A stretch of DNA of 64,000 nt from Bacillota bacterium (GCA_050952625.1 JBMNLH010000001.1:800001-864000), one strand, 5' to 3'; numbered from the stretch's first letter, positions 3,078-50,183 are shown. Program-made: numbers and translations. Notes: generated by a model from the letters alone, not told the origin.

Positions 3078-3100
3078 GGGTGGCTTGGTCGGTAAGGTAG

Positions 3101-3979
3101 GTGAGGTTGTTGGAGATCCAGTGGTACCCCGGCCACATGGTGAAAGCCAAGAAGTTGATCCGGCAAAACCTGAGTTTAGTCGATGTGGTTATAGAACTGG
3201 TTGATGCCCGAATACCCCTAAGCAGCCGCAATCCGGATATGCAGACATTACTAAGCAGCCGACCTCGATTGTTGGTCCTGAATAAGGATGATCTGGCGGC
3301 ACCAGATAAGACTAGAGCCTGGTGTGCGTACTTTCGAGATCAGGGAACGCCGGCCATTGCTTTGAATTCTGCGATCGGCAAGGGTATGGGGCAAGTGATT
3401 ACCATTGCCTCTGCTCTGGCCGAAGACAAGATGGAAAACCTACGTTCCAGAGGCCGTCGGGAAAGGGCGATTCGAGCAATGGTAGTAGGCATTCCTAATG
3501 TAGGCAAATCAGCCTTTATCAATAGTTTGACTAAACGTTCGGTCGCCTTGGTGGGCAATAAACCTGGGGTAACCCGGGGTAAGCAGTGGATAAGAATCAG
3601 TAATGAATTTGAATTATTAGATACCCCTGGGATTTTATGGCCCAAGTTTGAGGACCCAGAAGTAGGTTTAAAGCTTGCCGTGACCGGGGCAGTCAGTGAC
3701 CTGGTTTATGATCTGGAGGAGGTAGGGGTCCGGCTCATCAGTTTACTTACCCGGGTAGCTCCAGAAGCTCTTCAATCTCGCTATCAGGTAAACCCGGTGG
3801 CTAGAGATGAGGTCGAGGCCTACGAACTTTTAAAGGAAATTGGCCGGCGTCGGGGCTTTCTTCAAGCTGGCAACCAGGTGAATACAGTTAAAGCGGCTTA
3901 TATGATTATTCAAGAGTTTCGCGATGGTAAGATTGGCCGGATAACACTTGATGAAGTACCATCCAGTAGTCGGCGATAA
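3101..3979 (+). CDS. rbgA: Ribosome biogenesis GTPase RbgA (YlqF)
   Basis: IQWYPGHM, DARIPLSSRNP, GIPNVGKS, LLDTPGILWPK. Confidence 0.97.
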   Translation: MRLLEIQWYPGHMVKAKKLIRQNLSLVDVVIELVDARIPLSSRNPDMQTLLSSRPRLLVLNKDDLAAPDKTRAWCAYFRDQGTPAIALNSAIGKGMGQVITIASALAEDKMENLRSRGRRERAIRAMVVGIPNVGKSAFINSLTKRSVALVGNKPGVTRGKQWIRISNEFELLDTPGILWPKFEDPEVGLKLAVTGAVSDLVYDLEEVGVRLISLLTRVAPEALQSRYQVNPVARDEVEAYELLKEIGRRRGFLQAGNQVNTVKAAYMIIQEFRDGKIGRITLDEVPSSSRR

Positions 3980-45864: not shown

Positions 45865-46326
45865 GTGAGTAATGATCAAGCCGGATTCAGTAATGAACTA
45901 CAACTGGTATCCTTTATCTTAGGCCAGGAAGAGTATGCTCTCGATATTTTGTTGGTTCAAGAAATTATCCGCATGTTGCGAATTACCCGGGTACCCAGGG
46001 CACCGCATTATATTGAGGGTGTGGTTAATCTGCGCGGAAATGTGATCCCGGTTTTTGATTTGCACCGGCGTTTTGGCCTGTCAGAACGAGTAAATAGTGA
46101 GCGGACCCGGATCATCGTGGTTAAAGTGCAGGAAATTACTGCTGGTTTAGTTGTCGACGGAGTATCCGAGGTACTCCGTTTACCCCAGGCCGCGGTTGAG
46201 CCCGTTTCTTCGCTGGTAACTGCTGTAGACACAGATTATATCCAGGGAATCGGCAAAAAAGATAATCGGCTTTTAATCATGTTAAACATTAACCGTGTAT
46301 TAGGGATTGAGGGCTTAGATTATTAA
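45865..46326 (+). CDS. cheW: Chemotaxis adaptor CheW
   Basis: GVVNLRGNVIPVFDL, GLVVDGVSEV. Confidence 0.96.
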   Translation: MSNDQAGFSNELQLVSFILGQEEYALDILLVQEIIRMLRITRVPRAPHYIEGVVNLRGNVIPVFDLHRRFGLSERVNSERTRIIVVKVQEITAGLVVDGVSEVLRLPQAAVEPVSSLVTAVDTDYIQGIGKKDNRLLIMLNINRVLGIEGLDY

Positions 46327-46358
46327 TTATCTTAGCGGGCGAATGAGGTGCTTAATCA

Positions 46359-46979
46359 ATGATTGATGAGTTTACTCAATTATCCGATTTTCAACTGGAT
46401 GCTCTAAGGGAGATTGGCAATATAGGTGCCGGTAATGCCGCTACATCTTTATCCATGATGATTAATCGTCGGATTGAAATGAGCGTACCTCAATTGACCG
46501 TACTGCCTTTTTCTGAACTGTCTTACGCAATCGGAGGACCTGAAACGCTGGTAGTCGGAGTGTATTTACAGGTACAGGGAATGTCTCCTTGCGGTATTTT
46601 GTTTCTACTTCCTCATGATAGTTCCCTAAAATTAGCGGAAATGTTATTGGATAAACCATCTGGTTCTATTAAAGTAATGGGAGAGATGGAACATTCTGCT
46701 TTAATGGAATTGGGGAATATTTTAGCTGGAGCCTATCTGAATGCGCTGGCCATGTTTACTGACTTGGAACTTTTTCCTTCGGTCCCTTCATTAGCTACTG
46801 ATATGTCTGGGGCGATTTTAAGTGCGGTTGTCTTTTCTCTGGGGGAGGTTGCTGATCATGCTCTACTAATCGAAACTAAGTTTACAGAGGATAACCAACA
46901 AGTTGTGGGGCATTTTCTTTTATTACCCGAACCAGGGTCACTTGATATAATCCTGGAACGGCTTGGAGTGAATATTTAA
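46359..46979 (+). CDS. cheC: Chemotaxis phosphatase CheC
   Basis: DALREIGNIGAGNAATSLS, SALMELGNIL. Confidence 0.95.
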   Translation: MIDEFTQLSDFQLDALREIGNIGAGNAATSLSMMINRRIEMSVPQLTVLPFSELSYAIGGPETLVVGVYLQVQGMSPCGILFLLPHDSSLKLAEMLLDKPSGSIKVMGEMEHSALMELGNILAGAYLNALAMFTDLELFPSVPSLATDMSGAILSAVVFSLGEVADHALLIETKFTEDNQQVVGHFLLLPEPGSLDIILERLGVNI

Positions 46980-47464
46980 TGGCTAGAGTAGTTCAGGTAG
47001 GTATGGCAGATTATAAGGTAACGGTTAGTCCGAATACCTTAATGACTGCCGGGCTAGGTTCTTGCGTTGGGGTATGTTTATGGGATCCGGTAACGAGAAT
47101 TGGTGGATTAGCCCACATAATGCTGCCCTCAAGCGTTCAGGCGCGAAGAACTGATAGTAAAGGCAAATTTGCTGATACAGCCATTCTGGCGGTAATCCAG
47201 GAGATGAGTCGTTTGGGAGCTAACCCAACTCGTTTGGTAGCTAAAATCGCTGGCGGAGCCCAGATGTTTAATTTCGGTGGTACTACGGATATTATGCGAA
47301 TCGGCGATCGTAATGCACAGGCTGTTCAACAGGTATTGAAAAATGAAAAAATAAAGATCCTGTTTTCCGATACCGGCGGCAGTCATGGACGAACCATTTA
47401 TTTTATGACGGAAAATGGTAAACTCACTATTCGAACAATAGAGCATGGTGAGAGGGTTGTGTAA
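46979..47464 (+). CDS. cheD: Chemoreceptor glutamine deamidase CheD
   Basis: GLGSCVGVCL, HIMLP, KIAGGAQMF, DTGGSHGRTI. Confidence 0.96.
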   Translation: MARVVQVGMADYKVTVSPNTLMTAGLGSCVGVCLWDPVTRIGGLAHIMLPSSVQARRTDSKGKFADTAILAVIQEMSRLGANPTRLVAKIAGGAQMFNFGGTTDIMRIGDRNAQAVQQVLKNEKIKILFSDTGGSHGRTIYFMTENGKLTIRTIEHGERVV

Positions 47465-47466
47465 TT

Positions 47467-48243
47467 ATGGCTGAACCTAAAATAAAACAACCCTGGCTTC
47501 GGTATAAACAGCAGGGGGATATTTCGGCAAGAGATAACCTGATTACCCAATATGTTTATTTGGTCAGGCAGGTAGCTGGTCGGTTAAGCATGGGACTTTC
47601 ATCCCAGGTTGAGCTGGATGATCTAATCGGGAACGGAGTTTTTGGATTATTGGATGCGATCGAAAAGTTCGATCCAACTAGAGGAGTAAAATTCGAAACT
47701 TACGCCGTTACCCGGATTAGGGGAGCAATATTAGACGGTCTGCGTGCTATGGATTGGGTCCCTCAATCAGTGCGCCAGAAAAGCAGAATGTTAGAGAAAA
47801 CATATCAAAAGCTGGAACAAGAATTAGCCAGGCCAGCGAGTGACCAGGAAGTTGCGCAAGCTTTAGGTCTAAACGATTTAGAATTTGATCGATTATTAGT
47901 GGAAGTGAGTCATACATCCTTATTCTACCTTGAGGATATGTGGCTCGGGGAGTCGAGCGACGATGATTCCCTCCGTATTATCGATACCCTGGAGGATCCA
48001 ACTATTGAAGAACCTACGGCCCGTTTAGAACATGAGGAGCTAAAAAATCTCCTGGCAGAAGCAATAGATAAACTGCCAGACCGAGAGAGACTAGTCATCT
48101 CACTATACTACTACGAAGCCCTAACCCTCAAAGAAATCGGAGCAGTCCTCGGATTATCCGAATCCCGCATATCTCAACTACATACCAAAGCCATCCTAAG
48201 ACTACGCGGCCGCCTAAGCCGACAAAAAAAACGGATATTCTAG
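47467..48243 (+). CDS. sigD: Flagellar sigma factor SigD/FliA
   Basis: KFETYAVTRIRGAILDGLRAMDWVP, LYYYEALTLKEIGAVLGLSESRISQLH. Confidence 0.96.
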   Translation: MAEPKIKQPWLRYKQQGDISARDNLITQYVYLVRQVAGRLSMGLSSQVELDDLIGNGVFGLLDAIEKFDPTRGVKFETYAVTRIRGAILDGLRAMDWVPQSVRQKSRMLEKTYQKLEQELARPASDQEVAQALGLNDLEFDRLLVEVSHTSLFYLEDMWLGESSDDDSLRIIDTLEDPTIEEPTARLEHEELKNLLAEAIDKLPDRERLVISLYYYEALTLKEIGAVLGLSESRISQLHTKAILRLRGRLSRQKKRIF

Positions 48244-48363
48244 GAGCACCGTATCTAAAAGTCAGGAAAGAACTGTACAAACAGAAGTAGAACTTTAGCA
48301 CCGCAGAAACTGTGCGAAAAGCAAGAGGTGCGACTATTAAAATAAAAGGAGCACCGTATCTAA
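48242..48363 (+). repeat. 17-bp direct repeat pair enclosing an 88-nt structured spacer
   Basis: AGGAGCACCGTATCTAA at 48242-48258 and 48347-48363 (exact); partial AGCACCG at 48297-48303. Confidence 0.85.
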
Positions 48364-48409
48364 CTATTTTTATTAAGGATAAAGTAACTGCCGGTAGGAG
48401 GTGGGCATA

Positions 48410-49810
48410 ATGAAGAAACCCTATATTGGCGTATCAATTGAACAAGACAGCATGGCAGCTTACTTACAGGTTGAGAACGATGATGAAGATAATTATAAGG
48501 GTGATATTCAGGAACTATTCGAAATGGCTTTAGAGCGTCTTCAAGAGAAAGGGGTAAAGTATGGGATTGATGAAGCGGCAGTGCGAGATGCGGTTTCTGT
48601 ACGACGTGGAGAAAAGATGCTAGTAGCGGTGGGCAAACCCGTTGAGGAAGGTAAAGATGCGAGTATTACTTTTCATTACTTATCCGATAAAGAAAAAGCA
48701 GGACGACCGCAGGAGCGAGAAGATGGAACTGTTAATTTTTGGGATTTAAACTTGATTAACAATGTTCGGGCCGGTGATATTTTGGCGACCAAAACACCAT
48801 CGGTTTCCGGAAGTCCAGGAATTACGGTTACTGGCCAGATTATAAAACCGAAGCCAGTTAAAAACGCGACTCTCCGTCGGGGCAAAAACACATCTTTGGA
48901 GAACAATGGTTTAAAGTTGATTGCTACCCGAGACGGACACGTGGTAACAACGGCCGATGGAGTAATTAGTGTTTTGCCTGTTTTAACCGTTAACGGAAAT
49001 GTGGATGTGGCTACTGGCAATATATCATTTATCGGTGATGTAGTAATCCAGGGTAGCGTAAAACCCGGTTTTGCGGTCCGGGCTGAGAAAAATATAGAAG
49101 TCATTGGCAATGTTGAAGGGGGTTCACTTTTAGCTGGTGAATCTATTACGGTTAAAGGAGGCATCATAGGGCAAGGAAAGCACCGTGTCGTGGCTGGTGG
49201 CAGCCTGAAGGCGCGATTTATCGAAAATGGTATGGTTCAGGCAAGAGGCGATATTTTAATTAATGACGCTATACTAAATAGTACAGTCATCGCTGGAGGA
49301 CGGATCCAAGTGGAGGGCCGGCGAGGAACAATTGTCGGGGGCGAGACGCGAGCCACCTTTGAAATAAAAGCGAAAAATATCGGGTCACCCTTAACGCCTT
49401 TGACTCAGCTTGAAGTTGGTGTTAAGCCTGAATGGAAGGAAGAATTAAAGAAGATACTGGCAGAATTAAAATCAAAAACCAAAAACTTGGAAAAAAGTCG
49501 ACAAGTATCCAATATGTTGGTTCAATTAAAAAAGAACAAAGGCGAGCTGCCGAAAGATAAGCGGGAAACCCTGGAACGCCTGCAGTTCACCGAACAGCAG
49601 TTAGAACAAGAGATTGCAGAAGGGCAGAAGCGTAAACGAAAGTTGGAAGAAAAACTGTCCATGCTCACAACCGGTAAGATTAAAGTTCAGGGAACAATCT
49701 ATCCTGGAGTAACCGTTGTTATTGGAAATATAACGATGAGTATCAATGATCCGCTCCAATATTGTCAATTAGTAATAGAAAATGACGAAATCAAAATCCG
49801 TCCTTATTGA
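48410..49810 (+). CDS. FapA / DUF342 family flagellar assembly protein
   Basis: GVKYGIDE, PQEREDGTVNF, VNGNVDVATGNISFIGDVVIQG beta-helix repeats, IYPGVTVVIG. Confidence 0.9.
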   Translation: MKKPYIGVSIEQDSMAAYLQVENDDEDNYKGDIQELFEMALERLQEKGVKYGIDEAAVRDAVSVRRGEKMLVAVGKPVEEGKDASITFHYLSDKEKAGRPQEREDGTVNFWDLNLINNVRAGDILATKTPSVSGSPGITVTGQIIKPKPVKNATLRRGKNTSLENNGLKLIATRDGHVVTTADGVISVLPVLTVNGNVDVATGNISFIGDVVIQGSVKPGFAVRAEKNIEVIGNVEGGSLLAGESITVKGGIIGQGKHRVVAGGSLKARFIENGMVQARGDILINDAILNSTVIAGGRIQVEGRRGTIVGGETRATFEIKAKNIGSPLTPLTQLEVGVKPEWKEELKKILAELKSKTKNLEKSRQVSNMLVQLKKNKGELPKDKRETLERLQFTEQQLEQEIAEGQKRKRKLEEKLSMLTTGKIKVQGTIYPGVTVVIGNITMSINDPLQYCQLVIENDEIKIRPY

Positions 49811-49868
49811 ATGATTCTTGAAGGTAGCGAAATCTTGTTGGTTAGGTATTTCAAAGGGGGTGTTGGTT

Positions 49869-50183
49869 TTGTCAGTTAAAATGGTGGATATGCAGGTTCT
49901 TATACCGAAAGTACAAGAGGTGGCGAAAACTCAGCAAATCCAGCAGCAGGGGCTACCGAACCAGCAAGCGAGCTTAGCGGCTCAGTTACGTCAAGAAGCA
50001 GCCCATAAGCAAAGTAGTGTTCAAGAAACTCCCCAAAGTGAAGAGAGTAAGATTCTTGATCAGGAAAAGGAGCGAAAGAATCGGGATGAGCCAAGAAACC
50101 GGAAAAAGAAAGATGAGAAACAACGGCTAGCTAGTTCATCTAAAGATCCTCGTTTGGGTAATAAAGTAGATATAATAATATGA
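49869..50183 (+). CDS. Conserved hypothetical protein downstream of fapA
   Basis: VDMQVLIPKVQEVAKTQQ N-terminus, charged middle, ends GNKVDIII; TTG after AAGGGGG. Confidence 0.7.
   Translation: MSVKMVDMQVLIPKVQEVAKTQQIQQQGLPNQQASLAAQLRQEAAHKQSSVQETPQSEESKILDQEKERKNRDEPRNRKKKDEKQRLASSSKDPRLGNKVDIII

Follow-up and report, generated by a model that had tools for sequence, protein, structure and literature searches.

Silent sites at the 3' end of sigD, a sigma factor gene of a Bacillota bacterium (GCA_050952625.1), are occupied almost exclusively by A and C up to the point at which a tandem repeat begins, and the same skew was found in all four genes of this genome that read in sense into a complete array of that repeat. 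The gene occupies positions 47467-48243 (+ strand, 258 codons plus TAG) of a 64,000-nucleotide stretch (JBMNLH010000001.1:800001-864000), which is called the window here and to which plain coordinates refer; coordinates with the prefix C are contig positions in the whole genome, G000, of 2.9 Mb in 9 contigs (C1, C3, C4, C5, C7 and others). The name E107 is given here to the tandem repeat unit, about 107 nt long and opening with a 17-mer. G000 and its independently assembled sister species G001 (about 96% DNA identity) belong to genus g1 of the Syntrophomonadaceae, and g2, represented by G002 and G005, is the sister genus in the same family. The skew accompanies the complete sense-oriented E107 arrays of this one genus and not hairpins or repeats generally, and it amounts to a keto-to-amino conversion of the coding strand with the proteins conserved.

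The third positions of the last 60 sigD codons (48061-48240) comprise 31 A, 23 C, 3 G and 3 T, so that 54 of the 60 codons end in A or C, compared with 95/198 in the remainder of the gene. From the codon usage of G000, conditioned on the amino acids, 28.4 such codons are expected, and the Poisson-binomial probability of 54 or more is 1.9e-12. The z score of the tract, which sets the A/C third-position count against this expectation, is 6.71 and was found to be the highest among 630,339 sliding 60-codon windows taken from 2272 non-overlapping open reading frames (ORFs), each of at least 120 amino acids. A run of 28 consecutive A/C-ending codons is likewise the longest in this ORF set, the runners-up having 23 and 18, and in a frame-agnostic scan of 5.8 million windows 54/60 was reached at three loci, the other two of which are low-complexity repeat proteins. 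Counted in blocks of 10 codons from the stop going upstream, the A/C codons number 9, 9, 9, 10, 10 and 7, and then 5, 5 and 4, which places the start of the plateau at about 48076. The 54/60 count and the 28-codon run had been reported in an initial annotation made from the sequence alone, and our recount agrees with both as well as with its other sigD block counts. Its statement that seven of 11 leucine codons are CTA is right for the CTA codons and wrong for the total, which is 12 (seven CTA, three CTC, one CTG and one TTA).

The sigma protein was described in that annotation as canonical, and this holds. Pfam matches to sigma-70 regions 2 and 4 lie above the cut-off and region 3 is matched weakly, and the last 60 residues, encoded by the skewed tract, are 85-90% identical to those of three other genera, which matches the conservation among those genera themselves. 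The host gene is a member of the sigma-70 family of FliA/SigD type; the subgroup follows from the flagellar and chemotaxis operon context and not from a subgroup model. Its orthologues are present in 41/41 genomes.

The four genes reading in sense into a complete array are sigD, pheS (45/60 A/C third positions, z 5.47), a fakA-like gene (39/50, z 4.55) and rpsF (27/40, z 2.55). When gene ends were ranked by the z score of their last 40 codons, sigD, pheS and the fakA-like gene, which are long enough for the ORF set, took ranks 1, 2 and 5 of 2272; rpsF is too short for this set. In all four genes the skew forms a plateau of 40-60 codons (120-180 bp) with a sharp upstream edge, in agreement with the polar, repeat-anchored tract of this size that the initial annotation had described. 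In G001 all four junctions are likewise occupied by arrays, and the skews recur (54/60, 40/58, 37/50 and 29/39, in the above order). As the two species share the skew, the skewed state is old and predates their split. Outside the genus the comparison covers sigD and pheS, and here the gene ends are ordinary: all 28 sigD orthologues from as many other genera are unskewed (16-38/60), as are all 13 pheS orthologues from genomes outside the genus (19-37/60), and in the nearest genera a plain spacer of 20-35 nt lies ahead of pheT. The check proposed at the outset, namely that orthologues without the element should be unskewed, has therefore come out in favour of the association.

The effect is confined to the upstream side of the arrays. 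No skew is present in the four downstream genes over their first 60 codons (z -0.75 to 1.14), and for fapA, which follows sigD, the count is 26/60 (z -0.29); the 25/60 given earlier depends on the start codon chosen, and the gene is unskewed by our recount. The thrS gene, which ends 25 nt from an antisense E107 copy, has a normal z of -1.39, and the non-coding DNA 5' of the antisense and partial copies is also unskewed. The gene at C3:172625-173404, which runs into a 40-nt relic of the repeat (a truncated sense copy), has 21/40 and is unskewed. In genus g2, the five upstream genes of a homologous repeat end 13-50 nt ahead of an array, one of them with its stop touching a half-copy of the motif, and all five are unskewed (27-38 of about 60). 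The absence of skew at the g2 repeat, at the truncated sense copy and at the antisense and partial copies shows that the 17-mer motif alone is insufficient. The expectation that other motif copies would carry an adjacent skew is thus borne out for complete sense arrays (4/4) and fails for these remaining copies.

A generic effect of hairpins at stop codons was considered and rejected, since 100 genes whose stop has a strong hairpin beginning no more than 8 nt away have a mean z of 0.06, as against 0.04 in 1511 hairpin-less genes. Two other families of G000 resembling repetitive extragenic palindromic (REP) elements showed no systematic skew, with nine stop-touching copies included, and two single genes running into family-A REP-like copies reach z above 4. 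The next most A/C-skewed gene ends of the genome (C5:80008-80709, C4:46547-47392 and C4:318692-319345; z 4.6-4.9) have a repeat or an inverted repeat immediately at the stop and may be weaker instances of the same effect; in the last of them a 23-codon A/C run lies within a Glu/Pro/Thr-rich tail.

The nature of the shift was analyzed by nucleotide, conditioned on the amino acids. T is depleted and C is enriched in all four tracts (z for C 4.6, 6.1, 2.0 and 2.1), three of which also have a deficit of G and two an excess of A. Of the measures compared, A+C was the most consistent, with tail probabilities of 0.0000, 0.0001, 0.0002 and 0.034, and neither pyrimidine content nor A+T has changed, pheS with its mild shift excepted. 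G+C changes little. On the coding strand the strongest change is T to C, followed by G to A. Synonymous first positions have shifted too, leucine being encoded in the tracts by 22 CTN and 4 TTR codons although TTR makes up 43% in G000 overall, and the pattern tracks the nucleotide and not the rarity of the codon. GC and TA skews are -0.29 and -0.33 in sigD, -0.12 and -0.05 in pheS, -0.12 and -0.27 in the fakA-like gene and 0.02 and -0.30 in rpsF, and the overall C/G ratio is about 1.8, 1.3, 1.25 and 0.96 in the tracts as against 0.5-0.85 in the rest of the genes. The sign of the skew is opposite to the usual coding-strand or leading-strand bias, third positions of G000 being 55% G or T.

The explanation that we tentatively prefer, with a probability that we would place a little below even, is a strand-asymmetric, transition-type bias at the DNA level which is tied to the array and has passed through the filter of purifying selection on the proteins. 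It is favoured because the tracts show a pure strand asymmetry with base classes conserved, because RNA-level properties are inconsistent across the tracts, and because selection at silent sites in this genome is weak. In its simplest version, the template strand would be resynthesized repeatedly from one side, or repaired with a bias, with the coding strand serving as template, and G.T-type mispairs made in such resynthesis would lead to G-to-A and T-to-C changes on the coding strand. The bias may belong to the past or have been episodic, or else behave as a fixation bias rather than as raw mutation.

The timing could be examined through the silent divergence between G000 and G001. Third positions differ at 17/209 sites in the tracts and at 91/982 sites in the rest of the same genes, which is 0.87 of background. 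Relative to background, about 1.8-fold divergence is predicted for a two-state mutation bias at equilibrium (binomial P about 0.0003, or about 0.01 with a hand count restricted to amino/keto changes), about 0.6-0.7 for weak selection and about 1.0 to 1.1 for a bias that has ceased to act. An ongoing mutation bias at equilibrium is excluded by these counts, which weakens the error-biased process of the initial annotation as one still under way, whereas weak selection and an inactive bias both fit; as silent divergence is not raised, the tracts are not now driven by a high mutation rate. A single burst of hypermutation is impossible, because one event could not have spared the non-synonymous sites.

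Several observations weigh against a DNA-level bias. Silent divergence shows no excess, and amino-acid divergence in the tracts is not raised either. The skew forms a plateau and does not decay with distance, and in three of the four genes it is slightly weaker in the 10 codons nearest to the array. The homologous repeat of genus g2 leaves all its upstream genes unskewed. Four-fold degenerate sites carry 29 A, 49 C, 11 G and 5 T, and 38.6 A would be expected from transitions alone (z -2.23). Moreover, no candidate enzyme was found, the RAYT-like gene of G000 being paired with another repeat family and its reverse transcriptase genes being broken.

In a more specific and doubtful form of the DNA-level explanation, one-sided DNA synthesis would start or stall at the fixed positions set by E107 arrays, and the tract would record the patch length and the error signature of that synthesis. 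The DnaE polymerase of Firmicutes is poor in proofreading and makes the initial patches on Okazaki fragments. One candidate would be hairpin-directed priming on the lagging-strand template, with the first 150-180 nt made by DnaE, and another would be transcription-coupled resynthesis of the template strand behind RNA polymerases held at the array. All four skewed tracts lie on the leading strand, with the top strand of the array as lagging-strand template, and both unskewed antisense and partial copies have the opposite orientation relative to replication; this placement is consistent with start or stall points but is confounded with gene context. Under such a process, the same cause would underlie skew islands of the GRINS type, which are compared below.

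Two enzymatic sources were tried and rejected. The initial annotation had pointed to an HUH or REP-associated enzyme, but the two PF01797 (Y1) matches of G000 (C5:74509-74841 and C1:1584141-1584493) do not adjoin E107, and the only RAYT-like Y1/HUH gene, at C5:74509-74841 in a frame of 279 amino acids, has as its neighbours copies of another REP family, whose core is GGGGACGGTT. A reverse transcriptase as the driver was discarded since the reverse transcriptase genes of G000 are frameshifted or interrupted. Fragments of such genes lie at C1:515360-515981 and C1:1279082-1279402, one frameshifted and one with a stop, and the ORFs that contain or adjoin them are among the more A/C-rich windows of G000 (z 4.2-4.8). 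The two REP-like families have about 39-47 copies (core GGGGACGGTT) and about 30-68 copies (core GGGACAGGT), which often begin right at stop codons, as at C5:71026, C5:75016 and C4:46539.

Selection on the transcript is the most serious rival and is possible, although we hold it to be on the unlikely side. Here the last 120-180 nt of the cistron would be kept C-rich and poor in G and U for the sake of the array, most concretely as a Rho-loading zone of the Rho-utilization (rut) type, which, placed before hairpins lacking a U-tract, would lead to partial termination or attenuation within the operon; another factor binding single-stranded RNA is also possible. It stays serious because of the plateau shape, the silent divergence without excess, the excess of C at four-fold sites over the transition-only expectation and the silent repeat of the sister genus. 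The effect follows the sense orientation and the gene 3' end in the manner of a module with a sharp edge, and the observed divergence fits weak purifying selection. The tracts other than that of rpsF further resemble rut sites in being C-rich, G-poor stretches of at least 80 nt upstream of a possible pause of RNA polymerase, and the enrichment of C in all four tracts, the depletion of G in three and the raised C/G ratios are in keeping with this. Rho is encoded in G000 and four relatives (5/5 genomes searched), and a terminator scan of 47400-48700 predicted none, the sigD array included. A preprint deals with Rho as an aid to weak hairpin terminators (10.1101/2022.07.21.500918).

On the other hand, A+C fits all four tracts better than C minus G does. 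No base is depleted more than T, and four-fold sites have gained A, neither of which is a feature of rut sites; the CTA and ATA codons used make no YC dimers; and C exceeds G in three of the four tracts, not in rpsF. Little structure, as in a rut site, is predicted for the sigD and fakA-like tracts but not for pheS and rpsF. As rut sites, the tracts would be placed in translated coding sequence between genes needing co-expression, and attenuation within pheS-pheT or rpsF-ssb is hard to justify. Codon-level selection is almost lacking in G000, as codon usage in 31 genes for ribosomal proteins and elongation factors resembles that of the whole genome and expression-linked codon bias is nearly absent; in a cluster of such genes (C7:8844-29341) codon usage is nearly equal to the genome average. 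The sister-genus repeat, homologous and without skew, tells against transcript selection as it does against a DNA-level bias.

An unstructured alphabet, proposed initially as selection for A/C-only single strands, is improbable. A and C are the sole synonymous-compatible pair of third-position bases unable to pair mutually, and a tract made of them would keep the mRNA or single-stranded DNA beside the hairpins free of competing structure. Compared with synonymous versions drawn from genome usage, the sigD tract does fold much more weakly (-25.7 vs -42.8 +/- 5.2 kcal/mol), as does that of the fakA-like gene (-25.8 vs -34.8 +/- 4.7 kcal/mol). For pheS (-48.2 vs -47.1 kcal/mol) and rpsF (-24.5 vs -22.6 kcal/mol), however, the tracts are not less structured, and the proposal is contradicted for two of the four. 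Permuting the synonymous codons within a tract leaves the folding unchanged, none of the four has a reduced predicted pairing energy between tract and first unit, and generic hairpins touching a stop have no such tract.

Import of the gene tail is given the same low credence. The array would have arrived by recombination together with foreign or already recoded last codons, and the tract would be donor sequence. The sigD gene stops 2-3 codons before the stop of three other genera, its TAG being created at the repeat junction; since the TAG arises at this junction and sigD is shorter than in other genera, the array was inserted within the old gene end, and a junction at this place would suit an imported tail. 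Only 22-40 nt lie behind the arrays (23 nt at pheS), which leaves no room for an orphaned native end, and the tract proteins share their nearest relatives with the rest of the genes. Moreover, a donor with four A/C-only gene ends would need the same explanation.

Selection on translation is if anything slightly less probable again. A/C-ending codons, read by Watson-Crick pairing with GNN or UNN anticodons, or less used and slower, would tune decoding ahead of the stop and the Shine-Dalgarno-like repeat. REP elements affect translation, and mRNA stabilizers of the Shine-Dalgarno type exist. The codon-adaptation index is lower in the tracts (0.59-0.72) than in the rest of the genes (0.71-0.78), and E107 starts with AGGAG at the stop codon. 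The 31 highly expressed genes, with their genome-average codons, reveal no measurable preference, the pattern follows the nucleotide and not codon rarity, and the one g2 homologous repeat that touches a stop has no effect. Finally, chance or an assembly artefact is hardly credible, given the P value of 1.9e-12, the first rank among all windows, the recurrence at four genes, and the presence of the skew in the independently assembled G001 and of 48042-48347 in contigs of three metatranscriptome runs. Taken together, the interpretation offered in the initial annotation is partly supported.

Among known systems, the GRINS appear to be the closest published analogue, although the E107-linked tracts fall outside their definition. 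As described (PMC8256042), these regions show correlated skews of G+T vs C+A which are strongest at third positions and change abruptly on a 150-nt scale; they are defined as duplications above 500 bp that share over 80% identity with another copy, the GC skew and the TA skew each having to exceed 0.15 in mean absolute value, and they have been connected with gene conversion. Error-prone synthesis is the suggestion of the authors, who leave the cause unexplained and also mention single-copy skewed regions (PMC8256042). Measured against this description, the tracts share the skew of G+T against C+A on one strand, its maximum at third positions, abrupt changes within 100-200 nt and a protein that is kept functional. 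They differ in comprising 120-180 bp of four different genes, which fail the 500-bp criterion on length, and in being unique coding sequence that favours A/C on the coding strand in every case and has its anchor at the 5' edge of an array. With the 0.15 thresholds so reported, sigD passes both skews, the fakA-like gene and rpsF pass one of two and pheS passes neither. If a DNA-level bias is indeed the cause, the tracts would join the GRINS-type skew islands in the same unexplained class.

E107 resembles REP, BIME and REPIN elements in that it is a small hairpin-forming intergenic repeat placed in operons just after stop codons, clustered and in a single orientation relative to the genes. It is distinguished from them by its length of about 107 nt, strictly tandem arrangement, 5-bp stem, A-rich loop of 19-22 nt with a Shine-Dalgarno-like motif and presence at only 7 loci. 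Unlike in REPIN-RAYT systems, no RAYT is linked to it, the RAYT-like gene lying among another REP family. Within the limited literature searched, no description of codon recoding beside intergenic repeats or REPs was found. The strand skews caused by replication and transcription lie on the same keto vs amino axis, but the sign in the E107 tracts is opposite to that of the local leading and coding strand, and the effect is far stronger and confined to less than 200 bp.

Silent sites are usually viewed as near-neutral and subject to genome-wide forces, and here a small repeat is tied to the near-complete and strand-specific rewriting of about 150 bp. The tracts sit in essential genes with a sharp boundary and unchanged proteins. 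If the cause is mutation or repair, they would be a natural read-out of localized DNA synthesis or repair and an anchored, experimentally tractable model for skews of the GRINS type; if it is selection, an intergenic RNA element would place a hitherto unrecognized requirement on the preceding coding sequence. Either way, tests for horizontal transfer, measures of codon bias and estimates of synonymous divergence (dS) can go wrong where codon usage is locally shifted in this manner.

The units of E107 are arranged head-to-tail, each array being ended by one extra 17-mer. A covariance model built from 13 units gave 13 matches at 7 loci in G000. The model places five units in the gap of pheS and pheT, two in that of rpsF and ssb, a single one in that of sigD and fapA, and one and a half behind the fakA-like (DAK2/FakA) gene; thrS and infC are separated by an antisense copy, and contig 4 has a partial one. 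The 40-nt relic in contig 3 (C3:172584-172624; L182 1501-1541, minus strand) touches a TAA stop and has on one side a thiolase-like gene and on the other an ORF resembling enoyl-CoA hydratase, a name drawn only from the C-terminal residues. The TAG stops of pheS, the fakA-like gene and sigD overlap the first two bases of the 17-mer, and the rpsF stop stands four bases ahead. Behind the arrays, the next candidate start is 22-40 nt away at three of the four loci, and the pheS array is followed after 23 nt by the ATG of pheT. Unit numbers differ between G000 and G001 (1.5 vs 2.5 at fakA, 2 vs 1 at rpsF, and 5 vs at least 2 at pheS, where contigs end), and the arrays have therefore expanded or contracted since the split.

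The units are A-rich (A 0.43-0.44) and poor in T (0.16). A five-base segment near the end of the unit pairs with the following 17-mer to form a closing hairpin, for which compensatory changes were seen in 3/5 pairs among the 13 units; its A-rich loop of 19-22 nt (19 nt at sigD) carries the Shine-Dalgarno-like AAGGA(G). A small internal helix is paired in 100% of cells of the alignment, with variation that is one-sided only (G-C/G-U). In genus g2 the homologous unit has about 62% identity and the same helix in different letters (GATGC/GCATC, GACGC/GCGTC). Comparison of g1 and g2 units for T-to-C together with G-to-A changes inside the arrays gave no such simple pattern; the g1 units are T-poor and A-rich through several types of change, which may have run in either direction. 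An E107-type element was found by covariance model in 4/7 genomes of the class and by BLAST in 3/61 relatives. In a scan of genome contigs with the g1 motif, relevant matches were confined to contigs of one Syntrophomonadaceae metagenome-assembled genome; the matches listed for a looser hairpin motif in such a scan were almost only chance ones, and a 20-base E107 motif gave 0 matches in metagenome contigs.

At the sigD locus (all features on the + strand), the TAG stop (48241-48243) contributes its AG as the opening two bases of the first 17-mer (48242-48258), the same junction as in pheS and the fakA-like gene. The E107 unit itself spans 105 nt (48242-48346), is purine-rich and T-poor, and is matched to the other arrays by BLAST and by the covariance model. 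A small internal hairpin with a 4-bp stem and an AAA loop (48303-48313) is retained in 13/13 aligned units, and the closing hairpin (48327-48355) pairs GGTGC (48327-48331) with the GCACC (48351-48355) of the closing 17-mer copy (48347-48363), which was identified by sequence match. The sigD gene is preceded by cheC and cheD and followed by fapA, as shown by Pfam matches to CheC, CheD and FapA; fapA, for flagellar assembly protein A (48410-49810), probably starts at the ATG at 48410 after AGGAGG.

No Rfam covariance model matched the interval 46000-50000 of the window at E <= 1. A promoter scan of 47400-48700 gave 2 promoter-like sites as against 2.3 expected; an antisense one (48265 to 48237) spans the sigD junction, and by eye the other junctions have no comparable site. 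Four metatranscriptome runs contain short, low-depth contigs over parts of 47444-49500, which carry no information on strand, ends or level, and one such contig bridges 48118-48347. Outside the window, at about C1 536585-536665 (L157 about 3100-3180), pheT of G000 appears to have a one-base insertion near codon 26 relative to G001 that breaks the frame; unless the assembly is in error here, an essential gene is truly frameshifted. Within the sigD tract, 10 nt ahead of the stop, a run of eight A (48224-48231) in Gln-Lys-Lys codons forms a potential slippery run.

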